This document shows, piece by piece, positions 3,174 through 39,576 of a stretch of 44,642 bases of DNA; within the stretch, counting starts at the first letter, position 1, and every line of letters starts with the position of its first letter. The position numbers and the translations under genes are program-made. The stretch covers positions 1-44,642 of the forward strand of contig SDNY01000013.1 in assembly GCA_004524535.1 (NCBI GenBank), in the 5' to 3' direction. The stretch is from Promethearchaeota archaeon (GTDB lineage Archaea; Asgardarchaeota; Lokiarchaeia; Sigyniarchaeales; SOKP01). The notes beneath the pieces were generated by a model, which was given only the letters and a program-made list of their open reading frames with translations, searched no databases and was not told where the DNA came from.

Positions 3174-5627
3174 ATGGTAAGTGAAAAACTACTTTATTTA
3201 GATCCCAGTCAACCTATTGAAAAAAGAGTTGATGATCTAATTTCAAGAATGACTATAGAAGAAAAAGTTGCTCAACTCGGATCTCAATATGCTCCATCGT
3301 TAATGGAACGGACTGAACTATCTCATGATAAAATGAATAAATTAATTGGCAAAGGAATTGGCCAAATCACTAGAATTGGTGGTACATTGAATATAACCCC
3401 GGAAGAATCTGTTAAAATTGCAAATGGTATCCAAAAATTTTTAAAGGAGCAAACTCGCTTAGGAATTCCTGCTATTGTTCACGAAGAGTGCTTATGTGGG
3501 TATACAGCTAAAAAAGCCACTATATTCCCTCAAATCATTGGTGTGGCATCTACATGGGAACCAGAATTAGTAGAAGCTATGACAACAAAGATTGGTGAAC
3601 AAATGCGTGTCGTTGGTGCCCATCAAGGATTATCTCCTGTTCTTGATATTGCGCGCGATCCTAGATGGGGTCGAACTGAAGAGACTTTTGGCGAAGATCC
3701 ATATCTTGTATCGCGGATGGGTGTAGCTTATGTAACAGGTCTACAAGGCGATTCTCTTCAAACGGGGATAATTGCTACCGGTAAACACTTTTTAGGTTAT
3801 GGATATTCTCAAGGGGGTAGAAATTGGGGTCCATCGTTTATCCCCAAAAGAGAATTACTTGAAGTGTTCGCAAAACCATTTGAAGCTGCAATTCACGAAT
3901 CTAATATAGGTTCAATTATGAACTCTTATTCCGAAATTGATGGAATTCCTTGTGGAATTTCCCGTGAAATTCTGACTAATTTATTACGCAACAAACTTGG
4001 TTTTAAAGGTATGGTTGTTTCGGATTACGTTACAATTGAATTAAACTGTAAAGTGCATCGAGTCGCTATGAATACTACAGAGGCTGCAATTCTTGCGTTT
4101 AATGCTGGTCTCGAAGTAGAGCTTCCAAGAACTGCTGGTTTTGGCAAACCATTTGTCAGAGCTGTTAAAAAAGGAAAGGTTAGCGAAGAAGCGTTGAATC
4201 AATCAGTTGCCCGTATATTAAAGAAAAAATTTGAACTTGGATTATTCGATAATCCGTATAGTAATGATGATCAAAAAAGAATCTTGAAAGTCTTTTCAAA
4301 TCCAGAGAATAAAAAATTAGCAAGTGAAATTGCTCGTAAATCCATAATTTTATTAAAAAATGAAGATAATCTTTTACCTCTCAACAAGGACTTAAAATCA
4401 ATTGCTTTAATTGGTCCTAATGCTAATAGTGTGCGTAATTTACTAGGTGATTATACATATGTAGGTCAATTCGAAGCTTCTGCGAGTAATGCTACAGGTG
4501 TAAGTGAGCTTGATGAGGAACAAATGGCTCTATTAAAACAATTATTTGATGATGAAGATCCGGACAAATTTACGAAAAATTCATGCGAAATTAAAAGCAT
4601 TTTAGAAGCTATAAAAGAAAAAGTTTCAAAAAACACTAAAGTCAATTATGCTAAAGGTTGTGAAATTCAAAGCGATGATAAAAGTGGATTTAAAGAGGCA
4701 ATTGAATTGGCAAAAAAATCGGAAGTTGTGATTCTAGTAGTAGGGGAAAAAGCAGGATTGACAAGGGGATGTACGAGTGGAGAATCTCGTGATCGTTCTT
4801 CATTAACTTTACCTGGCGTACAAGATGAGCTGGTTCGGGAGATTCATGCAACTGGCGCTTCAATCGTTTTGGTTTTAATAAATGGACGACCTCTATCAAT
4901 TTCTTGGGAAAAAGAAAACATTCCCGCTATATTAGAAGCATGGTTGCCCGGTGAAGAAGGTGGTGTTGCGGTTGCTGATGTTTTGTTTGGTGATTATAAT
5001 CCTGGAGGAAAATTACCAATCTCTGTTCCTCGAAGTGTAGGACAAATTCCGATTTATCATAACTGTAAACCTACGGGAGGAATTTCTGTATGGGCATGGA
5101 ACTATGTGGAAGAAAACACTACTCCTTTATTTCCCTTTGGATATGGCCTAAGTTATACTAAATTTGAATACGATAATTTGGTAATAAATAAGCAAAATGT
5201 CGACTCAAAAGATACCGTGGAAATTTCTGTTGATGTTAAAAATATTGGCAAAATTCGCGGGGATGAAGTGGTACAATTATATTTACACGATAACGAAGCA
5301 ACAGTTACACGTCCTTTGGAAGAATTATTCGGATTTAAAAGGGTAACCTTAGATCCTGGAGAAAAAGCTACAGTAATTTTCACAGTTTCAATGAAACAAC
5401 TTGGATTTTATAACGAAAACATGGAATATGTTGTAGAACCCGGGAACATTAGCGTTTACATTGGGAGCGTACATGCTAATCATGGCTCAGGATATTTAGA
5501 CTTAGGAGATATTTTTGCTCAAAAAGATGTGAAACTGAAAGGCAAATTTAAAATTACGGGTGAAACTATAGATTTGAGTAAAGATAAGGAATTCTTCTCT
5601 AAAATTGTTGTAAAAAAAAAGGAATAA
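3174..5627 (+). CDS. GH3 glycoside hydrolase (beta-glucosidase/beta-xylosidase type)
   Basis: RDPRWGRTEETFGEDP, KHF, nucleophile VSDY, LLKNE, AWLPGEEGG, PFGYGLSYT, Fn3-like C-terminus; no signal peptide. Confidence 0.95.
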   Translation: MVSEKLLYLDPSQPIEKRVDDLISRMTIEEKVAQLGSQYAPSLMERTELSHDKMNKLIGKGIGQITRIGGTLNITPEESVKIANGIQKFLKEQTRLGIPAIVHEECLCGYTAKKATIFPQIIGVASTWEPELVEAMTTKIGEQMRVVGAHQGLSPVLDIARDPRWGRTEETFGEDPYLVSRMGVAYVTGLQGDSLQTGIIATGKHFLGYGYSQGGRNWGPSFIPKRELLEVFAKPFEAAIHESNIGSIMNSYSEIDGIPCGISREILTNLLRNKLGFKGMVVSDYVTIELNCKVHRVAMNTTEAAILAFNAGLEVELPRTAGFGKPFVRAVKKGKVSEEALNQSVARILKKKFELGLFDNPYSNDDQKRILKVFSNPENKKLASEIARKSIILLKNEDNLLPLNKDLKSIALIGPNANSVRNLLGDYTYVGQFEASASNATGVSELDEEQMALLKQLFDDEDPDKFTKNSCEIKSILEAIKEKVSKNTKVNYAKGCEIQSDDKSGFKEAIELAKKSEVVILVVGEKAGLTRGCTSGESRDRSSLTLPGVQDELVREIHATGASIVLVLINGRPLSISWEKENIPAILEAWLPGEEGGVAVADVLFGDYNPGGKLPISVPRSVGQIPIYHNCKPTGGISVWAWNYVEENTTPLFPFGYGLSYTKFEYDNLVINKQNVDSKDTVEISVDVKNIGKIRGDEVVQLYLHDNEATVTRPLEELFGFKRVTLDPGEKATVIFTVSMKQLGFYNENMEYVVEPGNISVYIGSVHANHGSGYLDLGDIFAQKDVKLKGKFKITGETIDLSKDKEFFSKIVVKKKE

Positions 5628-5648
5628 AGAATTTTCTTAATTCTTATT

Positions 5649-6713
5649 TTATTTTATGTTACTATTAACTGATTTAATTCTTTTTTCTGCGTCATTGACA
5701 ATAGAACTAATTAAATCGGATACCTTTTCTATGCTTTTTATAATTCCAATACTTTGACCTAATAGAACTGCTCCATTCTCAGTGTCTCCTTCATATATAA
5801 CTCTGTAAGCCCTAGCTTCCTTTAAAAACTCTTCAATCGTTGTTTTGTTTTCCATAGCCATCTTTTCTTCTTTAGAACCAACTTTAGGATGAGATGCTGC
5901 GTACGGGTTTTTCCAAAGCCTTATTGGCCCAAACGCCCCTGTGGCTAATACAGTATCTTGAGCTCTTGCTGGAGGAACAATCTTTTTATAGGTTTCATGA
6001 AATTCGCTTTCTTTTGACGCGATAAATCTAGATCCCATTGCTACAGCTCCAGCACCTAAACTTAAAGCTGCGGCTAATGATCTGCCTGTAGCAAAACCTC
6101 CACACGCAACGATGGGAAAGTCCGGATATTTTTCTAAAACTTGTTGTAACAAGACCAAAGTACTTACTTCTTCATAGGACTGATGACCGCCCCCTTCAGT
6201 TCCCGTTATAACTATTCCGTCTACATTTGAAGCAACACACTTATCAGCAAGCCATAATGCTGGAGCTACATGAAAGTGTTTAATATTTGAGACCTCTCTT
6301 AATTTTTGGAAAGATTTTGATTGGGGTAACGTTTTAGAAGACCCTGCACTAGTTACTGCATAAATACATTGTTCTTTTAATTTTGGGTTATTCATGATAA
6401 ATTTAGGAATCTCTTTACACAATATGGCCGCATCCCTCTGTACCCTTGAGGTTCTAATATTAAAACCAAAGGGTTTATCTGTATGTTCTACAACCCTTTC
6501 CATACTTCTTTTCATTGCTTTAAGAGTCGCCTCTCTATCTGTCCATGTTTCTTTTTCAGGACGATCAAAATCAGATGCATGGCTTATTACACCAAGGCCT
6601 CCAGCTTCAGATACTGCTATTGTTAACTCAGTAGTATAAAAGGGACCCATCGGTGCAGCAATAATGGGATGTTTAATCCCTAACATTTTGGTGATATTTG
6701 TTTCAATTACCAT
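5649..6713 (-). CDS. Nitronate monooxygenase / FabK-like FMN oxidoreductase
   Basis: LGIKHPIIAAPM, VSEAGGLG, GTEGGGH, ACGG, ALSLGAGAVAMGSRF, GQSIG. Confidence 0.88.
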   Translation of the reverse strand: MVIETNITKMLGIKHPIIAAPMGPFYTTELTIAVSEAGGLGVISHASDFDRPEKETWTDREATLKAMKRSMERVVEHTDKPFGFNIRTSRVQRDAAILCKEIPKFIMNNPKLKEQCIYAVTSAGSSKTLPQSKSFQKLREVSNIKHFHVAPALWLADKCVASNVDGIVITGTEGGGHQSYEEVSTLVLLQQVLEKYPDFPIVACGGFATGRSLAAALSLGAGAVAMGSRFIASKESEFHETYKKIVPPARAQDTVLATGAFGPIRLWKNPYAASHPKVGSKEEKMAMENKTTIEEFLKEARAYRVIYEGDTENGAVLLGQSIGIIKSIEKVSDLISSIVNDAEKRIKSVNSNIK

Positions 6714-6794
6714 ACTAGTTTCTCCAAATATTTTTTAGTAATTTATTATAATTTGTTATTACTAAAATTTTTAAACTGAATTAATATAAAAAAC

Positions 6795-7934
6795 TTGGGT
6801 ATCATCATGTATTCTAAGCCAAAGAAAATAGGTAATTTAGAGATTAAAAATAGATTTGTTAGGTCAGCAACATATGAAGGTATGGCTACTGAAGAAGGAC
6901 ATGTGACAGAAAAACTTATAAAACTTTATAAAGAATTAGCTGAAGGGGGGGTTGGATTAATAATCACTGGTTATGCAACTGTTCAAAAAAGTGGAATGAC
7001 TTTCGATACACAAACAGGAGTATACAATGATGACTTTATATCAGGGCTAAGTAAAATCGCGGATACTGTCCATGAAAATAGTCAAGATTGTAAAATTGCT
7101 TTACAAATATCGCATTGTGGTCGTCAATCCCGTTATTTAGAAAACACAATAGCACCTTCTGCTGTTTTGGAGAAATTAACAAGAAAAATGCCAAAAGAAA
7201 TGACCATTGAAGAAATAAGAGAAACCATTGAAGCATTTTCTCAAGCAGTAAGGAGAGTAAAAGAAGCAGGATTTGACGCAGTCCAACTTCACGGCGCACA
7301 TGGATATCTGATTAATCAATTTTTATCACCCTATACAAATAAAAGAACAGACGAGTATGGAGGGAGTATTGAAAAAAGAATAAAGTTTGTTGAAGAAATT
7401 TATAATAGGAGTGTAGAATTAGTGGGAAAAGATTTTCCGATTTTAATAAAAATGAATGCTGTTGACTTTTTAGAAGGTGGACTTACAATAGAGGAGTCTA
7501 AGAAAATAGCAGAAAGACTTTCAAAAATCGGTTATGCTGCTATTGAAGTTAGCGCTTGCATGTGGGATACATGTAAACGAAGTAAAAAAGAACTTGGTTG
7601 GAAGCCTACTTTTTTACCTGAAAGCCGAACGTTTGTAGGAACTAAAAATGAGGTTGCCTATAACTTACCTTTTGCTAAAGAAATTAAAAAGGTGATAGAT
7701 ATTCCATTAATAGTAGTTGGTGGGATCAATTCACGAGACTTAGTTGAACAAATTTTAACGGAAGGAAGTGCAGATTTCATTGCTCTAAGCAGACCCTTGA
7801 TTCGAGAACCTGACTTACCAAATAGATGGCTAAAAGGAATTGGAGATTCTAAAGTTGAATGTCTTTACTGCAACGGTTGTTTGTCAAGCTTAATTACAAC
7901 AGGTTTACAATGTGTAAAGAAAGAACCATTATAA
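6795..7934 (+). CDS. NADH:flavin oxidoreductase (Old Yellow Enzyme family) with C-terminal Cys cluster
   Basis: KNRFVRSAT, GGVGLIITG, QISHCGR, HGAHGYL, NKRTDEYGGS, SRPLIREPDLP, CLYCNGC...C. Start may be ATG 6807. Confidence 0.92.
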   Translation: MGIIMYSKPKKIGNLEIKNRFVRSATYEGMATEEGHVTEKLIKLYKELAEGGVGLIITGYATVQKSGMTFDTQTGVYNDDFISGLSKIADTVHENSQDCKIALQISHCGRQSRYLENTIAPSAVLEKLTRKMPKEMTIEEIRETIEAFSQAVRRVKEAGFDAVQLHGAHGYLINQFLSPYTNKRTDEYGGSIEKRIKFVEEIYNRSVELVGKDFPILIKMNAVDFLEGGLTIEESKKIAERLSKIGYAAIEVSACMWDTCKRSKKELGWKPTFLPESRTFVGTKNEVAYNLPFAKEIKKVIDIPLIVVGGINSRDLVEQILTEGSADFIALSRPLIREPDLPNRWLKGIGDSKVECLYCNGCLSSLITTGLQCVKKEPL

Positions 7935-7942
7935 TGATAATG

Positions 7943-9739
7943 TTATTTATATAAGGGTCCATAATTTTTACATGCTCTATAATCTGCTCCCTCTAAATCT
8001 TTAGTTCCAAAAGCATTCCAAGTACTTGGTCTGAATATTTTCTCATCGAGAACATTATGCATACAAACTGGAATTCTGAGGATCGAAGCAAGAGTAATAA
8101 GATCAGAACCTATATGACCGTAAGAGATTGAAGCATGATTCGCACCCCAATTATTCATCACATCATAGACAGTTTTAAAAGCACCATTACCTGTTAATCG
8201 TGGAGCAAACCAAGTTGTAGGCCAAGTAGGATCAGTGCGTTCGTTGAGAGTTTTATGAATATCTTCGGGAAGATCAACCGTCCAGCCTTCAGCTAATTGA
8301 AGTACAAGTCCGAGACCTTTAACAATATTTACTCTTGATATAGTACAGGGCATTCCACCTATTGTAAGAAAATTTGTAGAAAATCCTCCGCCTCTAAAAT
8401 AGACCACTGTAGCAGCGTGCCAAGTAGTTGCATCGCAGCAGTTTTTCACATCCTCTTCGGTTATGTCACAGAATGGCTTAATTGCTGGTTTTCCATCAAT
8501 TAATTGTTGAGCACTTCCATCTAAAGCAGCTGATCCCGAATTAATTAAATGCAGAATTCCATTTTCGGCCCTTCCCGTTAAAACTTTTCCCGTTACTCTT
8601 TTAACTGCGGCAGGACTCCAGTAGGTGCGAACGTCTGCAAATATTTGAGCTGTTCCCGTTAAAAGATGCCCAAAAAGCATAGCAATCCCATTTAATGCGT
8701 CATTTTCAGTAGCTATCAAATAAGGTTGACGAATACCATTCCAATCAAAGGAAGAATTAAGTATTGCTTCTAAGAAATCTCCATTTGGCATCCAATCAGT
8801 CCAGTGTCTTTGCCCTTGAAATCCAGATACAATAGCATTATGACCAAGCGATTCTTCTCCAAATCCTAATTCTTTTAACTTTGGATTCCCTATCATGAGA
8901 TCCCTAACAATCATAGCACTTTTAACAACAATTTCCCACTCTTTATCTTTTTGCTCCCTTGATTTTTGCTGTTCAGGAGGATTATGATCTGTTCCTTCTT
9001 TACAATTTTCTTTTACCCAAGTAAGAGCCCTCTCAAACTCAGCGGAATCATAAATGCCCTCTTTTAATCTCCTATTCACTTCGGACATATCAACATATTC
9101 ATTACGCATACCTAAATACTCTTGAAAGTATTGCTCCATAACAATTGACCCTGCAATACCCATTGAGACCGAACCGACAGAAAGATAGGACTTATCTCTC
9201 ATCCAAGCAACAGCTAAACCCGCCTTGGCAAATCGTAATAACTTTTCTTTAACATCATCTGGAATGGTATTATCATTAGCCTCTTGAACATCTTGCCCAT
9301 ATATCCCAAATGCAGGTATTCCCTTTTGAGTATGAGCTGCTAAAACTGCAGCAAGATATACTGCTCCGGGTCGCTCAGTCCCATTAAACCCCCAAATTGC
9401 TTTGGGAATGAAAGGAGTCATATCCATAGTTTCTGCACCATAACACCAGCTGGGGGTAACCGTTATAGAAAGCCCTACATTTTCGCTCTGAAATTTCTGA
9501 GCACATTCTACGGCCTCAGCTACACCCCCAATTGTAGAATCTGCGATTATGGATTCTACATCCACACCATTAGGATGTTTTAAATTAGATGAGAGGAAAT
9601 CGGCACATAGTTTCGCCATTTCCATAGTTTGTTCTTCGAGAGCATCCCGAACACCCATTTCTCTTCCATCTATTGTAGGTCGTATACCAATTTTTGGAAT
9701 AGATCCTCTCAATCGCTTCTTACCAATATATTTTTCCAT
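7943..9739 (-). CDS. fucI: L-fucose isomerase
   Basis: [73 protein letters not shown]: hallmark FucI sequence throughout. Confidence 0.96.
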
Positions 9740-9789
9740 ATTTTATATCCTAAATTTCAATTTGTTATATATGAATTAATAACTTATAT

Positions 9790-9810
9790 AATAATTCAGA
9801 ATGAATTATT
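9790..9810. promoter_or_regulatory. Inverted repeat AATAATTCA-GAA-TGAATTATT, candidate operator between divergent fucI and dehydrogenase/larA
   Basis: Perfect 9-bp arms with a 3-bp spacer; the AT-rich context weakens its significance. Confidence 0.3.
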
Positions 9811-9927
9811 TAAGTAGTTTAACCTCAATGGAAGTAGTTATAATGGAAATTTTTTTTTATAACAAATAGAATTTTTAATATTCAATCGTTTAAAATCTTA
9901 ATAACGCTTAAAAATGAATTTTCAGCT

Positions 9928-11676
9928 ATGAGTTCCGCATATAACAAGATTTCAGAAGCTCTCTCTCAAAAATTTAAGGAAATTGTAGGGGATGATTACT
10001 TTTTCTCAGAATACGAAATTAGATGGACCTATGCATTTGGCGGTACAATTTTTAGAAAGGATTGGATACCTGATTTAATTTTAGTACCTCAAACTACTGA
10101 ACAAGTTTCTCAAATTTTAAAGTTAGCAAACGATAATAATATTCCAGTCACACCAAGAGGTAGTGCTACCAGTCTATCCGGTGGTCCTATGACACCCTAT
10201 AAAGGGATAAGTGTAGATCTAACTAAGATGAATAAAATTATTAAAATTAATATTGAGAACAACCTTGTAGAAACCGAAGCTGGCGTTATTTGTGATGATT
10301 TAAACGAAAAATTAAAACCACATGGCTATTTCTTTCCTCCTGATCCTGGTTCAAGCTCAGTAGCGACAATTGGTGGGATGGTTGCTACGAATGCTGGTGG
10401 TATTCAAGCGTTTAAATATGGCGTTACAAAAAATTATGTTTTACATTTAGAAGTTGTCCTACCGAATGGTAAAATAATGAATTTAGGCACAGACGTTTTA
10501 AAATCAGTCTCTTCATATAATTTAAAAGATTTATTTATTGGCTCTGAGGGAACCTTAGGAATTATTACAAAAGTAGGGCTTAGGATTATACCTCTCCCAA
10601 AAACTAGAAAATTAGGATTATTTATTTTTGATAATGTAGAAGATTTACAAAAGGCTTCAATTGAGATTCGCAAGAATGGGATTATACCCAATTTATTAGA
10701 GTTTATGGATAAACTTATATTAGAAGCAGTGACCGATTATTTAGGAGGAGAATTCGTAGATTTTCCGAATGGATATGTTCTCTTAGCCGAAGTTGACGGA
10801 GATAATCCTAAAGCGGTAGATGAAAACTTCTCTGTAATGTTTGATATAATTATACAGAATAAACCTATATTCCATAGAATTGCTAAAAACAGTAAGGAGC
10901 GAGAAAGATTGATTCTTGCCCGAAAAGCTAACCTTCCCGCTTTATCAAGAATAAAACCAACAACATGTGTCGAAGACTGTACGATTAAATTATCGGATTT
11001 CGCAGATGTAATTAAAAAGATCGAGAAGATTCCTGAAAGAATTAATGCGAAAAACATGCTTGTCGCTACTATCTGCCATATGGAGGGTAATTTGCATCCT
11101 ACCTTCTTATTTAATGAAAATGATGAACAGGATGTAAAAGATTTTGAAAAAGCTATTGATTATCTATATAAAGAGATTATAATTCCAGTTGGTGGCACAC
11201 TCACAGGCGAACACGGGATCGGAAAAATAAAGACGCCTTATCTCGAACTGGAGCATGGTTCTGAAGTTGTGGATATAATGAGGCAGATTAAGGAATTGTT
11301 TGATCCAAATAGAATTTTGAATCCCGGGATCGGTAAGGGAGATCAGCGCACTCTAGTGAAATCAGAACTGATAAGAAGTTTGAAGAATCAATCATATAAA
11401 ATCTTAGAGTTGAAGTGTATGAGATGCGGCTTTTGTATAGAAATATGTCCTTCGAGAATTAATTATTTGATTGAGCCCTATAGCCCAAGAGGTCGATTAA
11501 GCATTTTAAATGGTCTTGTCTATGGCGAGATTGAATTAAATGAGTTAGTCGTAGATATATTTCAAGCTTGCACACTTTGTGGACTCTGTTATGTAAAATG
11601 TCCTGCAGGAGTTCAGACTCATGAAATTTTTGAAAAAGCTAGGGAAATTATTCATAATCAAGGGGGAAAAGCATGA
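9928..11676 (+). CDS. glcD: GlcD/D-lactate dehydrogenase-like FAD-linked oxidoreductase with fused C-terminal 2x[4Fe-4S] domain
   Basis: PRGSATSLSGG, FFPPDPGS, TIGGMVATNAGG, KYG, GSEGTLGIIT, GNLHP, GEHGIG, FDPNRILNPG; then CMRCGFCIEICP and CTLCGLCYVKCP. Confidence 0.85.
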   Translation: MSSAYNKISEALSQKFKEIVGDDYFFSEYEIRWTYAFGGTIFRKDWIPDLILVPQTTEQVSQILKLANDNNIPVTPRGSATSLSGGPMTPYKGISVDLTKMNKIIKINIENNLVETEAGVICDDLNEKLKPHGYFFPPDPGSSSVATIGGMVATNAGGIQAFKYGVTKNYVLHLEVVLPNGKIMNLGTDVLKSVSSYNLKDLFIGSEGTLGIITKVGLRIIPLPKTRKLGLFIFDNVEDLQKASIEIRKNGIIPNLLEFMDKLILEAVTDYLGGEFVDFPNGYVLLAEVDGDNPKAVDENFSVMFDIIIQNKPIFHRIAKNSKERERLILARKANLPALSRIKPTTCVEDCTIKLSDFADVIKKIEKIPERINAKNMLVATICHMEGNLHPTFLFNENDEQDVKDFEKAIDYLYKEIIIPVGGTLTGEHGIGKIKTPYLELEHGSEVVDIMRQIKELFDPNRILNPGIGKGDQRTLVKSELIRSLKNQSYKILELKCMRCGFCIEICPSRINYLIEPYSPRGRLSILNGLVYGEIELNELVVDIFQACTLCGLCYVKCPAGVQTHEIFEKAREIIHNQGGKA

Positions 11677-12950
11677 AATTTGATTACGGAAAGGATGAAT
11701 TAGAAATAAATCTTGAATCATCATGGAATGTAACAGTCTTTAAACCTGAAGAACAACCAGCAATTCCGAATCCGGTTGAAGCTGTCAGAATAGCGATAAA
11801 AAATCCAATAGAAAGTAAGTCGCTTAAAAAAATATTAGAATCTAAGGAAAATATAAATCAAATCTGTATTGTGGTTTCAGATGCTACACGTCCTGTTCCC
11901 TCGCATTTGATTCTTGAAGGTTTAGTAGAGGAATTAAATGAATATGGAATAGATGATAATCAAATTATGGTATTAATCGCAACAGGACTACATAGACCTT
12001 CTCGAGAAGAAGAGCTTGAAAAAATTTTAGGGGAAAAGTTGAAAAATCGATTAAAAACAGTTGATCATGTCGCAACCGATCAAGGTTCTATGAAATTTCT
12101 GGGACTAGCAGCAGATAATACCCCTATTTTCATAAATAAGCATTATTGTGAGAGTGATTTTAAGATACTTACGGGATATGTAGAGCCCCATTTTTTTTTC
12201 GGATTTGCGGGGGGTCGAAAATCGATTATCCCAGGCATAGCTGGCGCAGTAACAATACAAGCAAATCATTCGGCAGAAAATATAGCTCATAAAACTTCTC
12301 GCTTTGGTTTTTATAAAAGGAATCCTATGCATAAACATGCCATGGAAGCAATGGAATTGGTAGGTGCTGATTTTATCATTAATGTGTGTATTAATGTGAA
12401 ACATCAAATATCAGTTGTTGCTGCGGGAAATCCAATAAAAGTCCATGAGACTTTAGTAAGATTTCAAAAAAGATTTCTGTTCAAGGAAATTACAGCTCCA
12501 TTTGACATCGTTGTGTGTGGAAATGGAGGATATCCCTTAGATCTCAATTTGTATCAAGCGGTTAAAAGCATGGCTATTGGAGAGATGGCAGTCAAAGAAG
12601 GAGGAACTATTATTTCTGTGAATGAATGTTCTGAGGGTGTTGGACAAGAAAAGTTTAAGGAACTCCTTTTTTCGGGGATGAATCCCAAGGAGATTTATGA
12701 TAAGATTCTAAATAAAGAAATTATCGTCCCAGATCAATGGGAAATTCAAGTTTTAGCAAGAGTATTGATGAAAGCGGAAATATATGTCATATCAAAGCTA
12801 AAAGAGAAAGAAATTGGAAATATTGGATTAAAATATGCAGAATCTGTCGAAGAGGCTATTAAATTAGGTTTACAAAAACATGGTATGGATGCCAAAATTC
12901 TGATCTTGCCAAATGGACCACAAGTGCTTCCTATATTGAAAATTAGTTAA
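11673..12950 (+). CDS. larA: Nickel-pincer-dependent lactate racemase family protein
   Basis: SDATRP, ATGLHR, EPHFFFGFAGGRKS, ANHS, GGYPLDLNLYQAVK, PDQW; ATGA overlap with the upstream dehydrogenase. Confidence 0.92.
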   Translation: MKFDYGKDELEINLESSWNVTVFKPEEQPAIPNPVEAVRIAIKNPIESKSLKKILESKENINQICIVVSDATRPVPSHLILEGLVEELNEYGIDDNQIMVLIATGLHRPSREEELEKILGEKLKNRLKTVDHVATDQGSMKFLGLAADNTPIFINKHYCESDFKILTGYVEPHFFFGFAGGRKSIIPGIAGAVTIQANHSAENIAHKTSRFGFYKRNPMHKHAMEAMELVGADFIINVCINVKHQISVVAAGNPIKVHETLVRFQKRFLFKEITAPFDIVVCGNGGYPLDLNLYQAVKSMAIGEMAVKEGGTIISVNECSEGVGQEKFKELLFSGMNPKEIYDKILNKEIIVPDQWEIQVLARVLMKAEIYVISKLKEKEIGNIGLKYAESVEEAIKLGLQKHGMDAKILILPNGPQVLPILKIS

Positions 12951-12961
12951 AATATTTAATT

Positions 12962-13576
12962 TTACCATTCTGAAAAGAACTTTTCTTTAGAAAAATCTCG
13001 TTTTAAAGGCTTTCCTGTAAGCATTGTATAATATCTCAACATTGCAGATTGTTCTGCTCCAGTAACGTTTTGGAGGGCATCATATAGAGTATTCCCCTTA
13101 GCAAATACTCCATGGGCTCTTACAACCACAATAGGATAATTTTTCAACATAGGAGGGACTTCTCGCGCCGCATCTGTAGGCCCCGCGGGATTATCTACCT
13201 CAATAACAGGTATTTTTCTATACATATAAATTCCCTCTGCATCAAGACAAGTAATCTCGTCTTCTATCAGCGATAAAATAACGCAAAAAGGATTATGAGC
13301 ATGAATCACGGCCATTGCATCTGTATTTAAATAAATTTGTCGATGTACATTCGTCTCTGTGCTAGATAGCATAATTCCAGAATCTTGAGTATAGAGATCA
13401 GTCTCAATTATATCTTCAGGCTCTAGAAAACCGAGCATGGCACCCCTTCTTTTAATAAGGATCTTCCCTCCAGCCCTCATACTAATATTACCTGAATGGG
13501 ACGTATTATATCTGTGATCAGTTAATACTTTGCCTACAATTTTAAATTGCTTAAACGTTTCTGGATCGAGATTCAT
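12962..13576 (-). CDS. fucA: Class II aldolase, L-fuculose-1-phosphate aldolase-like
   Basis: SGNISMR, SSTETNVHRQIY (catalytic Glu), IHAH and RAHG metal-binding His residues; genomic context. Confidence 0.8.
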   Translation of the reverse strand: MNLDPETFKQFKIVGKVLTDHRYNTSHSGNISMRAGGKILIKRRGAMLGFLEPEDIIETDLYTQDSGIMLSSTETNVHRQIYLNTDAMAVIHAHNPFCVILSLIEDEITCLDAEGIYMYRKIPVIEVDNPAGPTDAAREVPPMLKNYPIVVVRAHGVFAKGNTLYDALQNVTGAEQSAMLRYYTMLTGKPLKRDFSKEKFFSEW

Positions 13577-13613
13577 TTTTTGTCACTCAAACTAAAATAT
13601 ATAAATTCTGAAC

Positions 13614-15413
13614 TTAAATTAATCTTTTTAATGATAATTTTTCTAATAAACTGTCAGTAGGGATTCCATTTTCATCCCAATTTCTTACTTTATAATACTC
13701 ATCAATTAAATCATCGAGAGGGACAACTCTCCCTTTCGAGGGACCATCTTGTAATGGAGTTTCTAGAAACCTTTTTGGAAGGATATCATCTTTTCTCGAA
13801 AATCCTTCTCTTACGTTAAAAAGTCGCTCTAAAGTATAAATTCTTTCGCCAATGGTGATTAGATCTGTTATTGAAATTTTTCGATCTAATAGAGTGCTTA
13901 AAAATCGAGCAGTGAATTCGAAACCTAATGCATATCCCACAAACTTGCAAATGACTAATGAATCTTCCACTGCGCTCTGATTTTGCTTTAAAAATAACAG
14001 ATCTGATTTACCTCGAACAGAAAATCTATCGATTTTTTTAGGAGCTCCCAAAACTTCTAATGCGACTAAAAATCCCGTTAAGTGGCAGGCCCCGCGTGAA
14101 CTTACAGCATAATTTAGTGCATGACCAAATGCACCTCGGGGATCATATGCCGGAATTTCCATTCCCTTAACCTGCATTGCATAATCTTGAGCATTATATT
14201 TTCTAGAAAATCTTAGAGATCCTTCAGCTAATTCTTCTCCTATGCCTTTTCTCAGAGAAATCTGCTCAATTAATTCACATAAAATATCTTTATTTCCAAA
14301 AGTTAAAGAATCTTGTTTTATCAATCCTTTTTGTTGTAATTCCATAGCACACGCAATAGTCGCTCCAGTAGACATTGTATCCAAACCATAGTCATTACAT
14401 AAATAATTTGCATGAGTGATTGTTTTTAAATCAAAAATTCCTGTTAATGGTCCTAAGGCCCAGAGAGATTCGTATTCTGGACCTTTTCCACTCAGCTCTC
14501 CAGTGTTTGTCATTCTACCACATCTAATTATGCAGTTATAACACCCCTCGCTTTGTTCTAAAAATCTCTCCCTTAATCGTTCCCCACTTACTAAGTCTAT
14601 CTTTTCAGGTTCTGTATATGCGAATTGATAATTTTTAACGGGAAACATCCCAAATGAATTAATAACTTTAACTAAGGCTGCAGTTCCAAATAATGCCAGA
14701 CCTTGAGATGTGATAGGTACAACTTTAATTTTATCTCTGGCTACAATCGCTAACTTTTTCATATATTCTTTATTTTTAACGGGAAATTTGAGCGTACCGT
14801 TTTTCACGACAATAGCTTTTATATTTTTTGAACCCATTACAGCCCCTACGCCACCTCTACCAAAGGCTCTATGAGCTTGGTTCATAATAGCGGAAAATTT
14901 TACTAAGTTCTCACCAGCTGGTCCAATACATAATACTTGACAATTTTTTCCTTCCATTTGTTGAATCTTTTTTAAGGTTTCGGATGTCTTGAGGCCCCAT
15001 AAATTTTCAGCATCATTGATTTCAACTTTATCATATCCATCTATTACAATGTATCCTTTATTATCAGAAGAAAGTGCCCCTTTGATAAACAAACAATCAT
15101 ACCCACATCGTTTGAAATAGGGCCCCCAAAATCCACCTGAATTTGAGTGGAATATTGTATTAGTTAGGGGTGATTTTGTTACTAAAGAGAATCTTCCACT
15201 AGTTGGAGCAATAGTTCCAGTAAGAGGTCCTACAGAAAAAATCAATGGATTCAGTTTTGATAAAGGATCAGTTTTAGCTTTAGCTAAATAATCAGAGAGT
15301 AATTTAATACCTAATCCTCTACCTCCTAAAAAGTCAGAAAAAATCTCTTCTTCAATTGGTGTTTCAGAAACCTTTTTTGAATCTAAGTCAATATTTAAAA
15401 TTTTATTATTCAT
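13614..15413 (-). CDS. aor: Tungsten-dependent aldehyde:ferredoxin oxidoreductase (copy 1)
   Basis: FLGGRGLG, KSPLT, SNSGG, IGPAGENLV, GRGGVGAVMGSKNIKA, CYNCIIRC, GPEYE, GLDT, YDPR, RGACH, ERLFNVREG. Confidence 0.93.
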   Translation of the reverse strand: MNNKILNIDLDSKKVSETPIEEEIFSDFLGGRGLGIKLLSDYLAKAKTDPLSKLNPLIFSVGPLTGTIAPTSGRFSLVTKSPLTNTIFHSNSGGFWGPYFKRCGYDCLFIKGALSSDNKGYIVIDGYDKVEINDAENLWGLKTSETLKKIQQMEGKNCQVLCIGPAGENLVKFSAIMNQAHRAFGRGGVGAVMGSKNIKAIVVKNGTLKFPVKNKEYMKKLAIVARDKIKVVPITSQGLALFGTAALVKVINSFGMFPVKNYQFAYTEPEKIDLVSGERLRERFLEQSEGCYNCIIRCGRMTNTGELSGKGPEYESLWALGPLTGIFDLKTITHANYLCNDYGLDTMSTGATIACAMELQQKGLIKQDSLTFGNKDILCELIEQISLRKGIGEELAEGSLRFSRKYNAQDYAMQVKGMEIPAYDPRGAFGHALNYAVSSRGACHLTGFLVALEVLGAPKKIDRFSVRGKSDLLFLKQNQSAVEDSLVICKFVGYALGFEFTARFLSTLLDRKISITDLITIGERIYTLERLFNVREGFSRKDDILPKRFLETPLQDGPSKGRVVPLDDLIDEYYKVRNWDENGIPTDSLLEKLSLKRLI

Positions 15414-15517
15414 TTAACTGTTTAATAAAAAATTACTTTAAATATTAAAATTCGTTAAAAAACATTAATCCGAATTATTTTAAATTAGTTTTAAAAACTA
15501 AATAGGAAAAATAAATC

Positions 15518-17008
15518 TTGAAATTTCTTGCGGTTGACCTTGGAGCTAGCTCTGGAAGAGTAATTCTTGGTACACTCAGCGAAAGCAAGAAATTGAGTCT
15601 AGAAGAGATATATCGGTTTCCTAATGAAGGAATCCAGGTCAAAAACGAGCTACATTGGGATGTCCCGAATTTATTCAATGAAATAAAGAATGCTATAACT
15701 AAATATGTTAAAAAATATGGAGCTGATTTAAATTCTATAGGAGTTGATACTTGGGGTGTAAATTTTATCCTTTTAGACAAGGATGATAGATTTTTAAGTC
15801 CAATGTATCATTATCGGGATAAAAGGACTGTAGGAATGCTCGAAAAAATGTTTAAAGTAGTCCCGAAAGAGGAAATTTTTAAGCAGACCGGTATTCAATT
15901 CCTAGAACTTAATAGTTCAACTCAGCTTTTTTCTATGGTATATAATAAATCACCTCGTCTTCCTTTGACTAAAACCATAATTATGTTTCCTGATTATATC
16001 AATTATTTATTATCGGGAATTATAGCCTGTGAATTTTCTGACGCAACAACAACTCAGCTTTATAATCCAGTGAAAAAAGAATGGGCTTATGATTTAATAA
16101 AACGCTTAGGTCTCAATCCGGAGTGGTTTATTAAAGTTATATCTGGAGGAACCATTCTTGGTCCTATTAAAAAGGATGTGGCTGATGAAGTTGGGCTTAG
16201 TAGCGACACTAAGATTATTGCACCTCTTACCCATGATACGGGATCCGCTTATGTAAGCGTGCCAGTAGATATGAATAAGTATTTTGAGGGGGATTTTGGG
16301 ATTCTCAGTTCTGGTACATGGAGTGTGTTAGGCGTAGAGTTAAAGGAACCTTTAATTAATGATAAAGTCCTTAAATATAATTATTCTAATGAGGGAGGGT
16401 TTAACGGAACCATTCGATTTTTGAAAAATATCACGGGTATGTGGTTAATCCAAGAATGCAAAAAGATCTGGGAAAAGGAAAATATAAAATTAGATTGGGA
16501 TAAAATTGCATTTGAAGCTGAGAATGCAGATGGATTTCAATCTTTTATAAATCCAGATGATCATAGCTTCTTAGCACCCTCCAATATGATTCAGGCAATT
16601 CAAAAATACTGTAGATCTACAAATCAGAAAGTTCCTGAGACCATTGGAGAAATCTCTAGAACGATTTTTGAATCAATTGCCTTTAAATATAAACAAGTTG
16701 TTGAGAATCTGGAAGATATTATTGAAAAGAAACTGAAAATCCTCTATATGATTGGCGGAGGCAGTCAACATAATTTACTAAATCAATTTACAGCAAATGT
16801 ATTAAATATTCCTGTAAATGCGGGACCATCAGAAGCAACAATAATAGGTAATATATTGGTTCAAGCCTTAGCGTTAGGAGCAGTGGAAGATTTAATTGAA
16901 ATAAGAGAGATTGTTAGAAATTCGTTTGATATCAACTCTTTTTTACCTAAACATCATAAAAAATGGAATGACGCTTATTATTCTTTTTTAGATATAATAA
17001 ATCATTAA
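15518..17008 (+). CDS. rhaB: Rhamnulokinase (FGGY family; rhamnulo/fuculokinase)
   Basis: LAVDLGASSGR, IGVDTWGV, YRD, TGIQF, HDTGSA, SSGTWS, SNEGG, KNITGMWLIQ, GGGS, GPSEAT; TTG start. Confidence 0.92.
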   Translation: MKFLAVDLGASSGRVILGTLSESKKLSLEEIYRFPNEGIQVKNELHWDVPNLFNEIKNAITKYVKKYGADLNSIGVDTWGVNFILLDKDDRFLSPMYHYRDKRTVGMLEKMFKVVPKEEIFKQTGIQFLELNSSTQLFSMVYNKSPRLPLTKTIIMFPDYINYLLSGIIACEFSDATTTQLYNPVKKEWAYDLIKRLGLNPEWFIKVISGGTILGPIKKDVADEVGLSSDTKIIAPLTHDTGSAYVSVPVDMNKYFEGDFGILSSGTWSVLGVELKEPLINDKVLKYNYSNEGGFNGTIRFLKNITGMWLIQECKKIWEKENIKLDWDKIAFEAENADGFQSFINPDDHSFLAPSNMIQAIQKYCRSTNQKVPETIGEISRTIFESIAFKYKQVVENLEDIIEKKLKILYMIGGGSQHNLLNQFTANVLNIPVNAGPSEATIIGNILVQALALGAVEDLIEIREIVRNSFDINSFLPKHHKKWNDAYYSFLDIINH

Positions 17009-17016
17009 TGGATATA

Positions 17017-18288
17017 TTATGATTTATCTCGAGTATTAAGGATTTTATTTTCGTAGGATTCAATTTCTTTTATCCATTCTTTACCTATAGGAACATCGTT
17101 GCTTAAACAAAAGTAATCCCAAACTGCACCAAAAGGCATGGTTTTGCACTCCTCTAATAGTGCTAATCTTTGAAAATATTGCCCATTATCTTCATATTCT
17201 TGCAACAAATCTATGGGCTGAAGCAACGCATATAAAATACTTTTTTGTGTGGCGCGTGCTCCAATAACCCAAGCACCTATACGGTTTATTGAAGCATCAA
17301 AAAAGTCTAAAGCGAGGTGAATTCGTTCCATTTGTCTACTTCTCACTATTTCTTCAGCCAGGTGAATAATTTCATCATTTAAAATCGGAACATGGTCGCT
17401 GTCCCATCGAATTCCGCGACTGATATGTAAGAGTATTCCTTTAACAAATGGTAAAATCGCAGAGATCTTATCACCCACTGATTCTGTTGGATGAAAATGT
17501 CCTGTGTCAATAGTGAGTAGTGTATTATTCGCTATCGCATAACTTAAATAAAATTCATGGCTCCCCACTACATAAGCTTCACTTCCTATCCCAAAGAGCT
17601 TGCCTTCTAAAGAATCTATCATTTGAGAATCAGGATATTTCTTCTTTAAAATCTCATCTAATGATTTTTTGAGCAAGATTCGATGACCTGATCGATCAAC
17701 TGGGATATCTTTCATACCATCAGGAATCCAAAGATTATGGATACATGAGCTTCCTAACTTTTTTCCCATTTCAGCACTGATTTCCCGGCATTTTTTAACA
17801 TGCTCAATCCAAAATTCCCTAATTTCTTTGTTTTTACTGCTGAGGGTGAATCCATCATTAGATTTTGGATGGGAGAATAAAGTTGAATTAAAATCTAATT
17901 TAATATTAATATCTTTAGCCCATTCTATCCAACTTTGAAAATATTCTGGAGTAACCTCGTTTCTTTCAACAAATTTACCCCCAAAATCTCCATAAGATTC
18001 ATGCAATGAAAATCGATGACTCCCTGGTACTAAAGAAAGTACTTTTTCGAAATCTTGCCGAAGTTCACTAATTGTCCTTGCTTTACCAGGGTAATTTCCT
18101 GTCGCTTGGATTCCTCCTCCTGAAATCTCAGCATTTGGTCTTTCAAATCCCCCAACATCATCACCCTGCCAACAAGGAATAGAAATTTGAATCTCTTTTA
18201 ATTGGTTAAGGATTTTATCCGTATCAATACCGAATTCCAAATATTGTTTATTAGCGTTGCTATAATATCTTTCAATCTTTTCTCTCAA
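17017..18288 (-). CDS. rhaA: L-rhamnose isomerase
   Basis: CWQGDDV, GGIQATGNYPGKART, FSHP, NLWIPDG, KLFGIGSE, VGSHEFY, DTGHFHPTE, RWDSDHV, LDFFDASINR. Confidence 0.96.
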   Translation of the reverse strand: MREKIERYYSNANKQYLEFGIDTDKILNQLKEIQISIPCWQGDDVGGFERPNAEISGGGIQATGNYPGKARTISELRQDFEKVLSLVPGSHRFSLHESYGDFGGKFVERNEVTPEYFQSWIEWAKDINIKLDFNSTLFSHPKSNDGFTLSSKNKEIREFWIEHVKKCREISAEMGKKLGSSCIHNLWIPDGMKDIPVDRSGHRILLKKSLDEILKKKYPDSQMIDSLEGKLFGIGSEAYVVGSHEFYLSYAIANNTLLTIDTGHFHPTESVGDKISAILPFVKGILLHISRGIRWDSDHVPILNDEIIHLAEEIVRSRQMERIHLALDFFDASINRIGAWVIGARATQKSILYALLQPIDLLQEYEDNGQYFQRLALLEECKTMPFGAVWDYFCLSNDVPIGKEWIKEIESYENKILNTRDKS

Positions 18289-18386: not shown

Positions 18387-19235
18387 CTATAGTTGATTAT
18401 TTAATTTAAATTGTTTAAAAATCTGAGATCTTTGCTTTTGCATTGAATCATTTAAATAAGATTCATAGAGATAAAAACTTAGGATAACAATTACTACTAA
18501 TATTGAAATAGCAATGAAAACATAAACAGGTATTATTTCAATAAAAATTATTAATGACAAGAAAATTCCAATAAAAGAGATTACTAATAATTTTAATGAC
18601 GAATTCATGTTTTTTCTATACTTTAATCCCAAATTCTCTAAATTTGTTAATTTTTCATAATCAATATTCTTGATACTATAACAAATATTTGATTCTTTAA
18701 ACTTATTAGCCCATTCGGAACGTTTAATTGACATAATTACTCCTATTGATGGATAATATTCAAAAAAGAGATTCTTTCTGATCATTAAGTTTTTATTGGT
18801 TTCTTTTCTGTCTTGATATATAAATCCAGATAGACCTACTCCAACACTAATTGCAGTCATGATAAAAGCTAATAGCACTATTCTTGAAGTAAAGTATATA
18901 TTAATAAAAATAATAAAAGGTAAGAAACACATAAGAAAAACTGATAATAAACCGGTTATAATTGATTTTATTTTGTTTATAGAATGTTTTTCACAAAAAT
19001 AAATCCTTAGAGAATTACGATAAACACTATAATCTCTTCTATTCGGAAAAACATAATATCTGGGTTTAATTTTTAATGAATTATCCGCATCCTTGCTTCC
19101 GCATATTGGACAGATTATTGGAATATCAATATATTTATTGATGTATTGATAAGATTGTCTATTCTTTATTGGATCGGGTAAATATAATAATTCAAATCCA
19201 TTTTTTTCCGTTGTTGATTTATAAGCTATTTTCAT
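18387..19235 (-). CDS. Hypothetical membrane protein with N-terminal CxxC...CxxH zinc finger (paralogue A)
   Basis: ICPICG...FCEKH; about 4 hydrophobic segments; shares a SIxRxxWANxFK motif with its neighbour. Confidence 0.75.
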   Translation of the reverse strand: MKIAYKSTTEKNGFELLYLPDPIKNRQSYQYINKYIDIPIICPICGSKDADNSLKIKPRYYVFPNRRDYSVYRNSLRIYFCEKHSINKIKSIITGLLSVFLMCFLPFIIFINIYFTSRIVLLAFIMTAISVGVGLSGFIYQDRKETNKNLMIRKNLFFEYYPSIGVIMSIKRSEWANKFKESNICYSIKNIDYEKLTNLENLGLKYRKNMNSSLKLLVISFIGIFLSLIIFIEIIPVYVFIAISILVVIVILSFYLYESYLNDSMQKQRSQIFKQFKLNNQL

Positions 19236-20038
19236 ATTAAATCTTCCATATCAAGAGTTTCCATAGTATAATAAGCTAATTTTATAACAAAAAAGATAGT
19301 TGCTCCTATCAATAAAAAGTATAGAAAATATCCGATGAAGTACGCTATGATATAGGGTATGATGCCCAGTCCTAAAAGTAAAAATGAAAATATTATTCCT
19401 GGAATACAAATTGTTGCCATAATTCCTATATATATGGCGGAACGATTTCTTTTTTTCTTTAATTCTTCAATTAACTCTAAATCTAATTTATATTCACTAG
19501 TTTGGTTTAAATTCTTAAATTCGTTTGCCCAATCTAGTCTTCTTATTGAAATAATAGAATATTTTCGATAAAATTTAAAATTAACATATTTCTTTTCTAA
19601 ATCTTGAATCCATGTCAATTTAAATCCTCCTTTAATTATATTAAAAGAAAATAAAGCACAAATTATAGGTATTATTAGATAGATAATAGGCCCTGTAAAG
19701 GAACTTGATATTATATTTAAAAGAAGGAGAGAGATAATTAATAGAATTGTAAAAATAGAAATAAAATTCAACAATCTCAAGAATTTGGTTTTTTCATTAA
19801 ATTGAATATGTGTACCACACATAAAAATTGTAATATACTTACGAAAATTATAACTTCTAGATCTTAATTTGTATTTTTCATCAACATTTGTCTTTCCACA
19901 AATAGGACAGATATTAGGAGGGATAATTTTTATTTCATTTCGTTCCTTTCTTTTTGGAGAACTAACGAATCTATTGGGAATTTTAAACCTTTTCTTTTCA
20001 GATTTATTATCTGATAGTTTTTTCATTTTAACCCTCAT
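19232..20038 (-). CDS. Hypothetical membrane protein with N-terminal CxxC...CxxH zinc finger (paralogue B)
   Basis: ICPICG...MCGTH; about 4 TM segments; ATGA overlap with paralogue A. Confidence 0.75.
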   Translation of the reverse strand: MRVKMKKLSDNKSEKKRFKIPNRFVSSPKRKERNEIKIIPPNICPICGKTNVDEKYKLRSRSYNFRKYITIFMCGTHIQFNEKTKFLRLLNFISIFTILLIISLLLLNIISSSFTGPIIYLIIPIICALFSFNIIKGGFKLTWIQDLEKKYVNFKFYRKYSIISIRRLDWANEFKNLNQTSEYKLDLELIEELKKKRNRSAIYIGIMATICIPGIIFSFLLLGLGIIPYIIAYFIGYFLYFLLIGATIFFVIKLAYYTMETLDMEDLI

Positions 20039-37453: not shown

Positions 37454-37704
37454 GGCTTTTCATTAATTTTCTATGATTATTTTTTATAATTTTCCTTCTC
37501 AATAGTTTTCAAAAACTTGTATATAATTCATTTATATGAATATTTAGATGTATCTTTTATATTATATTATTATTTTCAGATGGCTTTATTTTAATAATAT
37601 ATAAGAGAAATATTAAAATTCTAAAATCAATAAGTTAGGAAATATATAATCTTAACTTTTTTAAGTCTATTTTAATTGAATAAAAATTGGTTTGATGATT
37701 CAAA

Positions 37705-39546: not shown

Positions 39547-39576
39547 AATTAGTTAATATTAAAAATAAATAAAAAG

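Follow-up and report, generated by a model that had tools for sequence, protein, structure and literature searches.

The window analysed here is the 44,642-bp contig SDNY01000013.1 of a Promethearchaeota archaeon (assembly GCA_004524535.1, order Sigyniarchaeales of the Asgard archaea), and between positions 7943 and 18288 it carries seven genes, named fucI, glcD-like, larA, aldolase, aor, rhaB and rhaA, which code for enzymes of deoxyhexose and lactate metabolism, among them a member of the AOR family of ferredoxin-linked aldehyde oxidoreductases. In our reading, to which we assign a probability of about 0.6, these genes represent two modules lying side by side, namely a phosphorylative deoxyhexose pathway with a dedicated AOR and a general Asgard lactate (2-hydroxyacid) module able to take L-lactate to pyruvate. 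The first half of the route, from deoxyhexose to L-lactate, is predicted on strong comparative evidence, while the second half, from lactate to pyruvate, is plausible and rests on that plausibility and on the adjacency of the modules in two close genomes. The source genome, hereafter G000, is a 3.66-Mb, 99%-complete metagenome-assembled genome (MAG), and the window is its contig C38.

In the proposed pathway, RhaA and FucI would isomerise L-rhamnose and L-fucose to the respective ketoses, which would be phosphorylated either by RhaB (possibly for both sugars) or by one of four XylB-like FGGY kinases, and a single FucA-like aldolase would cleave the products to dihydroxyacetone phosphate (DHAP) and L-lactaldehyde. 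A dedicated AOR-clade enzyme, with a tungsto- or molybdopterin cofactor, would then oxidise L-lactaldehyde to L-lactate with the reduction of ferredoxin, in place of AldA, which is linked to NAD, or of the FucO/propanediol branch. If the two modules are coupled as we presume, LarA would turn L-lactate into D-lactate, and the flavin adenine dinucleotide (FAD)/Fe-S enzyme, presumably specific for the D enantiomer, would oxidise it to pyruvate.

Organization of the cluster

A sequence-only reading of the window had described seven contiguous genes of the families named above, and this description proved right, as all of them are open reading frames (ORFs) with exactly the boundaries given here and with the expected Pfam domains (7/7). 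Family assignments were made with Pfam and NCBIfam profiles using the curated equivalog cut-offs, and solved relatives were ranked by bit score. The order is fucI (7943-9739, minus strand), glcD-like (9928-11676, plus), larA (11673-12950, plus), aldolase (12962-13576, minus), aor (13614-15413, minus), rhaB (15518-17008, plus) and rhaA (17017-18288, minus), with no further ORF of at least 80 aa between them except short nested ORFs on the opposite strand. As the strands alternate, the genes probably form about five transcription units and not one operon, with divergent promoter regions at 9740-9927 and 15414-15517.

An independent 110-kb contig of a congener, G008 (loci L019/L034), has the gene order NMO-OYE-glcD-larA-aldolase-aor-rhaB-rhaA, and its proteins are 93-99% identical to those of the window for the cluster genes, larA excepted. 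For six of the seven genes, therefore, the linkage is neither unique to this contig nor a misassembly, two outcomes which the sequence-only reading had named as fatal to its proposal; an assembly artefact for these six genes is ruled out by the same gene order in G008. The linkage also exceeds chance, since the adjacency of aor and aldolase recurs in 18 other Asgard loci.

The seventh gene, fucI, is missing at this spot in G008, where OYE runs straight into glcD. The fucI-less form is also represented by a contig from X4, an unrelated sequencing run, in which position 7927 is fused to position 9864. With both G008 and this contig lacking it, fucI appears to be a strain-variable insertion, that is, a presence/absence polymorphism spanning 7935-9927. 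The fucI-glcD junction was bridged by none of the listed contigs, which are short and come from related strains, in four DNA runs belonging to four other studies. The gene itself adjoins aldolase-aor in L037, L039, L042 and L161.

In G001, L037 and L039, fucI is placed with genes coding for GH29 and URO-D-like proteins, and URO-D-family genes recur by fucI and GH29 in L037 (17182-18210), L039 and L164 (G001:C3). This family has the fold of methylcobamide methyltransferases and decarboxylases, so one may speculate that these genes indicate the processing of modified (e.g. methylated) fucose.

The AOR and its aldolase partner

The product of aor contains the AFOR_N and AFOR_C domains and belongs to the AOR-proper type, as it matches the Pyrococcus furiosus AOR structure 1aor with 512 bits, compared with 306 bits for FOR and 223 bits for WOR5; it passes no NCBIfam model. 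The [4Fe-4S] cluster ligands C288, C291, C295 and C494 as well as E313 and H448 are kept, the residue numbers being what we take to be P. furiosus numbering, matched by counting along the alignment. There are 13 AOR-family genes in G000, and the 12 others are at most 37% identical to the one in the cluster.

For comparison, 72 loci encoding relatives of this AOR were fetched. In all ten Asgard loci among them with an AOR at least 56% identical, aor is followed on the same strand by a class II aldolase gene, directly in seven loci and with one ORF of about 310 aa between the two in three. The pair was also found in two Chloroflexota loci (L044 and L047), and the other 60 of the 72 do not carry it. 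A further eight Asgard loci, two fetched around rhaA (G021 and G016) and six drawn from the phylum sample described below (G155, G184, G187, G259, G294 and G263), bring the total to 18 distinct ones besides the window (19 with it), duplicates having been merged (L073 = G001, L040 = G017, L041 = G116 and L034 = G008). In 11 of the 18 loci, the fetched stretch holds at least one of the genes rhaA, rhaB, fucI, GH78 alpha-L-rhamnosidase and GH29 alpha-L-fucosidase, where one representative of each glycosidase family was scanned with Pfam and the remaining copies were assigned through blastp clustering. The remaining seven comprise two loci on contigs shorter than 4.5 kb, that of G001, which has its isomerase genes elsewhere in the genome, and four with a non-sugar context.

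In a maximum-likelihood tree of 74 AOR sequences, obtained by a quick, short search and containing several long branches, the 13 AORs of Asgard origin that are linked to an aldolase group in a single clade with an SH-aLRT value of 100. The AORs of the two Chloroflexota pairs are sister to it (94), and nine paralogues from G000 fall outside together with relatives from Cloacimonadota and Aminicenantes. Across a phylum sample of 301 genomes including G000, members of the AOR clade, defined by a threshold of E<=1e-180, are encoded in 22 genomes, rhaA in 16, fucI in six and either isomerase in 18. Fifteen of these 18 possess the AOR at this threshold, and G263 may be added as the 16th, with the arrangement GH29-fucI-aldolase-aor broken by a contig end. 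Seven AOR-positive genomes have neither isomerase, and two of them, whose AORs are 49-50% identical, are also devoid of the aldolase gene. In ten genomes of genus g2, rhaA and the AOR gene are separated by 17-29 bp. Such co-occurrence counts describe the data and are given without a statistical test because related genomes are not independent.

The sequence-only reading had placed the AOR at the lactaldehyde-oxidising step, and since the enzyme is tied specifically and repeatedly to the aldolase gene as well as to genes for deoxyhexoses, it is a good candidate for this role. Judged by gene content and phylogeny, the cluster AOR is thus a strong candidate for an L-lactaldehyde:ferredoxin oxidoreductase belonging to a dedicated clade.

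Some other arrangements of AOR genes were observed as well. A variant locus in L035, L036 and L073/L159 (G001:C5) has the order SCP2, aor, a 310-aa ORF with a weak creatininase-like match, and aldolase; in its vicinity there are a HAD-like gene coding for 369 aa and a 204-aa gene without assignment, and the same two occur together on contig C86 of G000. Three AOR paralogues of G000 adjoin iron-containing alcohol dehydrogenase (Fe-ADH) genes and could form pairs for acid-to-alcohol conversion or alcohol oxidation (C190, 5032-5535 and 6247-8058; C87, 327-797 and 1511-3358; C146, 1430-3265 and 3974-4456). A second AOR gene of the window (37705-39546, within 36026-41067) codes for a protein 37% identical to the cluster AOR and is followed by an amidase gene, and upstream of it on the other strand there is a gene resembling that of the alpha subunit of ADP-forming acetyl-CoA synthetase.

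Isomerases, kinase and aldolase

Both isomerases pass equivalog models of the E. coli type. FucI scores 1075 bits with NF008220 (cut-off 775) and 1048 bits with TIGR01089 (cut-off 850) and contains all three domains PF07881, PF07882 and PF02952, and RhaA scores 648 bits with NF002203 (cut-off 572) and 588.5 bits with TIGR01748 (cut-off 584.95). RhaB is an FGGY kinase with rhamnulokinase model TIGR02627 as its best match by far, the FucK model giving 117 bits, and its orthologues are encoded near aldolase-aor in L019, L025 and L038. Four XylB-like FGGY kinases are encoded in G000 in addition. The aldolase is a class II (metal-dependent), FucA-like enzyme of 204 aa, predicted to act on ketose-1-phosphates, with an Aldolase_II domain (PF00596, 103 bits); its best solved relative is the fuculose-1-phosphate aldolase from Thermus (2fk5), in an alignment with which, read by eye, the H-x-H and His positions of the metal-binding triad and that of the catalytic Glu are kept. 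The sole other class II aldolase-family gene found in G000, on contig C115, matches L-ribulose-5-phosphate 4-epimerase best, with all models below the cut-off. The earlier assignment of the isomerase, kinase and aldolase genes to the bacterial phosphorylative type is borne out, "bacterial-type" being a label which, for FucI, RhaA and RhaB, refers to passing such models and not to phylogeny.

No regulator was recognised in the window cluster. Bacterial sugar regulators of the FucR type belong to the DeoR family, and a gene for a member of this family lies between rhaA and rhaB in G016 (L025, 8913-9695) and beside rhaA-GH78 in G263 (L160, 4416-5180).

The lactate module

The glcD-like gene encodes a VAO/PCMH-type 2-hydroxyacid dehydrogenase, a candidate D-lactate dehydrogenase, in which the Pfam domains FAD_binding_4 and FAD-oxidase_C are combined with Fer4, and the C-terminus contains the motif CxxCxxCxxxC twice, at residues 497 and 548, consistent with two [4Fe-4S] clusters. 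The best solved relatives of this protein, GlcD-FeS, are LctD (7qh2_C, 248 bits), glycolate oxidase (239 bits) and mouse D-lactate dehydrogenase (201 bits). The best 120 homologues in the database are all about 580 aa long and at least 72% identical, and the named ones carry Asgard labels and generic names. It had been suggested from the DNA alone that the protein is an FAD/Fe-S lactate dehydrogenase, which is supported by its FAD part being nearest to LctD, the subunit that oxidises lactate in the lactate dehydrogenase/Etf complex of A. woodii.

LarA, with Lar_N and LarA_C domains, is a racemase of the 2-hydroxyacid type dependent on the nickel-pincer nucleotide (NPN) and a candidate lactate racemase. 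According to a hand-counted alignment with LarA from L. plantarum, it keeps H108 and H174 (catalytic), K184 (NPN attachment), H200 (Ni ligand) and R75, Y294, Q295 and K298 (substrate binding), and H73 is replaced by Ala. Genes for cofactor synthesis are present in G000, coding for LarB (236 bits, cut-off 175), LarC (PF01969, 334 bits) and LarE (254.8 bits, cut-off 150), and these genes, like the intact catalytic residues, support LarA as a candidate racemase.

The two genes overlap by 4 bp. Searches for glcD, larA and rhaA in a set of 39 relatives detected GlcD-FeS orthologues in 17, and in 14 of these larA is directly adjacent on the same strand within the 1.5-kb flanks seen, downstream of glcD in 13 genomes and first in G015. 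In the G000 scan, neither an Ldh_1_C enzyme nor a genuine FMN_dh enzyme was found. No ETF domain was detected among the 27 window ORFs scanned, a genome-wide Etf search not having been made.

Between the window and G008 (L019/L116), LarA is 67% identical, as with other orthologues (55-69%), and the neighbouring proteins are nearly identical (GlcD 93%, aldolase 99%, AOR 95%), which suggests that one of the two lineages has exchanged its larA, the slot itself having stayed occupied. In eight loci (e.g. L118, 3324-4217), a gene coding for an NMO/FabK-like FMN protein of about 300 aa is located just upstream of glcD-FeS and larA, and these proteins are 28-31% identical to the NMO of the window (5649-6713), suggesting a three-gene module. 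On contig C95 of G000 (5611-9302, at the contig end), the gene for a LutB/LldF-like protein lies directly upstream of those for the alpha and beta subunits of a 2-oxoacid:ferredoxin oxidoreductase, possibly a unit for the conversion of lactate to acetyl-CoA.

Competing interpretations

A number of observations weigh against our reading and are given here together with the explanations that they favour. The most serious of these explanations, though an unlikely one, is that the AOR step is right and the lactate module is a mere neighbour, with GlcD-FeS and LarA acting on external lactate or other 2-hydroxyacids (e.g. in amino-acid fermentation) and the lactaldehyde-derived L-lactate being excreted or oxidised by a LutB-like protein. 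The lactate module stands next to the sugar module only in G000 and its closest relative, G008, and the glcD-FeS/larA pair of G021 and G016, two further genomes with aldolase-aor-rhaA, is on a different contig. Of the 14 relatives in which the pair occurs by itself, eight showed no detectable rhaA. Its usual upstream partner, in the eight loci mentioned, is the NMO/FabK-like gene and no sugar gene, and the larA slot has been swapped between G000 and G008 (67% identity versus 93% for glcD). The seven genes are hence not one conserved unit, as the sequence-only reading had implied; glcD-FeS and larA form an independent pair and fucI is variable.

Although the families named are their best matches, GlcD-FeS misses the GlcD equivalog (TIGR00387, 379 bits versus 568), and LarA misses that of lactate racemase (NF033504, 422.7 bits versus 460) as well as malate racemase LarAH6 (397 versus 500) and matches the structures of lactate, broad-spectrum and malate racemases almost equally (255-240 bits). 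Moreover, the LutB/LldF-like protein of G000 (221 bits versus a cut-off of 444.8) weakens the earlier argument that stereochemistry explains the need for a racemase, since its position beside the 2-oxoacid:ferredoxin oxidoreductase makes a direct L-lactate route possible. On the other hand, L-lactate is the expected product of the AOR and requires a sink, two genomes at the species level share the juxtaposition, and within family f1 of the 39 relatives glcD-FeS is present in 7/7 genomes with rhaA versus 9/16 without it (these genomes not being independent), all of which speaks for the coupling of the two modules.

A second and rather improbable explanation concerns the sugar half. DHAP-shunt salvage recovers 5-deoxyribose and methylthioribose, and the aor-aldolase pair could serve such a ketose-1-phosphate route, fed by by-products of radical-SAM enzymes, with the AOR acting on acetaldehyde or a similar compound and lactaldehyde being handled by Fe-ADH (to propanediol) or by an aldehyde dehydrogenase (ALDH); five Fe-ADH genes and one ALDH gene, possible lactaldehyde handlers, are indeed present elsewhere in G000. 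In G155, G184, G187 and G259 the pair is surrounded by genes for radical-SAM, Fe-S and PadR proteins, sugar genes are missing over a distance of 20 kb, and neither rhaA nor fucI was found in these genomes; a radical-SAM gene is located beside the pair in three loci (blastp clustering, one representative scanned with Pfam). The Chloroflexota pairs likewise have a non-sugar context, adjoining a gene for a xanthine/uracil-family permease in both cases and one for a class V aminotransferase in L044, which makes the pair either older than its association with sugar genes or more mobile. The aldolase, with PRK08660 as its best match, scores below the equivalog cut-offs, with 186.6 bits for PRK08660 (cut-off 203), 78 for FucA_Meth (250) and 31 for TIGR01086 (400).

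Against this explanation, deoxyhexose genes stand right by the pair in 11 of the 18 loci, often only tens of bases away, the AOR clade is present in 16 of the 18 isomerase-bearing genomes, and there is no second aldolase in the cluster, the C115 gene matching the 4-epimerase best. The assignment to L-rhamnose and L-fucose has weak points of its own. RhaB misses its equivalog (TIGR02627, 491 bits versus 528) while belonging to the FGGY family, neither a clear FucK nor a full-length GH78 was found in G000, and the cluster offers one kinase and one aldolase for two sugars. In the phylum sample, G029 and G311 carry an isomerase gene and showed no AOR of the clade, and seven loci with at least 10 kb around rhaA contain neither aor nor aldolase.

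A third explanation is anabolic and very improbable. In methanogens, FucA and a lactaldehyde dehydrogenase have been proposed to give L-lactate for cofactor F420 biosynthesis, and the aldolase and AOR could supply L-lactate to the same end, in line with the weak match of the aldolase to the methanogen FucA model (78 bits); a review on F420 was the only one among the literature matches listed to name both lactaldehyde and Asgard archaea. The neighbours of the pair are catabolic, however (glycosidases, isomerases, a kinase and a transporter), and its patchy distribution over 22 of the 301 genomes is unlike that of a cofactor trait. Finally, a linkage arising by chance or through faulty assembly, for which the fucI junction seen only in the window contig and the existence of a fucI-less form might speak, is scarcely credible and largely refuted by the six-gene order on the independent 110-kb contig and by aor-aldolase in 18 other loci.

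Neighbouring genes

Outside the cluster, the window has a gene (21608-23017, minus strand) coding for a GPH/MFS_2-family sugar:cation symporter (MFS_2, 143 bits; TIGR00792, 98.8 bits, below the cut-off), which might be involved in the uptake of deoxyhexoses or glycosides and whose homologues are encoded close to aor-aldolase in L024, L034, L036, L042 and L073. The region 18387-20038 contains a pair of paralogous ORFs, 282 aa and 268 aa long, without a family match, each with an N-terminal zinc-ribbon-like motif CPICG...C..H and two long hydrophobic blocks. This region resembles an insertion, having a GC content of 26% compared with about 34% around it and missing from the corresponding interval in G008, between rhaA and the gene for the FAD oxidoreductase. 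The flanks of the window encode a Ras/Roc-type GTPase, RING/TPR and ThiN proteins, and Rfam and tRNA scans of the window gave no matches.

Significance

In marine sediments, the habitat of these Asgard archaea, the polysaccharides of algae and bacteria have fucose and rhamnose as major parts, and most of the runs with related sequence are labelled as sediment metagenomes. If the ferredoxin-linked lactaldehyde step is true, predictions of how redox equivalents and H2 are balanced when Asgard archaea ferment sugars would have to be altered, which would in turn bear on syntrophy models of the origin of eukaryotes, and it would give a physiological substrate to one of the 13 AOR genes of G000, many AOR paralogues being unassigned. 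The trait can be traced simply by the conserved aor-aldolase pair, and biochemical work gains a defined target in the GlcD-FeS/LarA pair found across Asgard archaea.

A more far-reaching version of our reading is tentative and falls somewhat short of even odds. It would make this the first phosphorylative L-rhamnose/L-fucose pathway in Archaea, in which a dedicated clade of tungsten AORs, inherited together with the aldolase as a fixed pair, would deliver electrons via ferredoxin to H2 for syntrophic partners. The Asgard-wide GlcD-FeS of about 580 aa would represent a novel type of D-lactate dehydrogenase carrying its own ferredoxin domain, and jointly with LarA it would convert the C3 tail of the deoxyhexoses completely to pyruvate without NAD.

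Comparison with known systems

In E. coli, L-fucose is degraded via FucI-FucK-FucA and L-rhamnose via RhaA-RhaB-RhaD, followed by AldA or FucO, and to our knowledge the routes for rhamnose and fucose reported from archaea up to now are oxidative. The Asgard cluster resembles the E. coli pathways in having FucI and RhaA of the E. coli type, an FGGY kinase and a class II aldolase, with DHAP and L-lactaldehyde as the expected products. It differs in its Asgard host, in having one short FucA-like aldolase and one kinase for two isomerases, and in being devoid of AldA and FucO, in place of which there is an AOR-type enzyme. With this ferredoxin-linked enzyme instead of AldA or FucO, the reducing power would go to ferredoxin and not to NAD.

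The AOR of P. furiosus is a broad-range enzyme for amino-acid-derived aldehydes. The cluster AOR is like it over the full length (1AOR, 512 bits), with the four cluster cysteines, E313 and H448 in place, and unlike it in that its clade has a fixed aldolase partner and 12 further AOR genes are found in G000.

Three published accounts provide bacterial precedents. WOR1 from Eubacterium limosum, a tungstoenzyme of the AOR family, oxidises lactaldehyde among other aldehydes in vitro, and the lct operon of this species contains a lactate racemase (PMC11725836). WOR1 is, however, described there as a broad-range, electron-bifurcating detoxifier untied to sugar genes (PMC11725836), whereas here a single AOR clade is bound to an aldolase. 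For Lernaellota MAGs, AORs were proposed to detoxify rhamnose-derived lactaldehyde, a proposal that rests, in the passage concerned, on "multiple AORs" without evidence of linkage (PMC9324843), while in the Asgard loci the AOR is genetically tied to the aldolase.

As for the lactate half, the established bacterial lct clusters, such as those of Anaerobutyricum and Acetobacterium woodii, combine the FAD-dependent D-lactate dehydrogenase LctD with EtfAB and a Ni-dependent racemase, which opens the other enantiomer to the stereospecific dehydrogenase, and Anaerostipes hadrus, having no racemase, cannot use L-lactate (PMC7702098). The Asgard module is similar in that a GlcD/LctD-type FAD dehydrogenase, with LctD as the best solved relative, is encoded together with a LarA-type racemase, and it is distinguished by the fused 2x[4Fe-4S] domain, by the lack of Etf among the 27 window ORFs and by the absence of a lactate permease from the cluster.

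The sequence-only reading knew of no described counterpart to the combination, a claim that does not stand in this form, as the three sources contain precedents in bacteria for both halves (PMC11725836, PMC9324843, PMC7702098). In mostly open-access literature, supplements lying outside, we found no published account of Asgard deoxyhexose catabolism and none of an AOR genetically tied to fuc or rha genes. As every type of enzyme and the two couplings are each preceded by a bacterial example, the cluster is not categorically new, and its interest lies mainly in the dedicated aor-aldolase pair and in the bearing of this pair on Asgard sugar fermentation.

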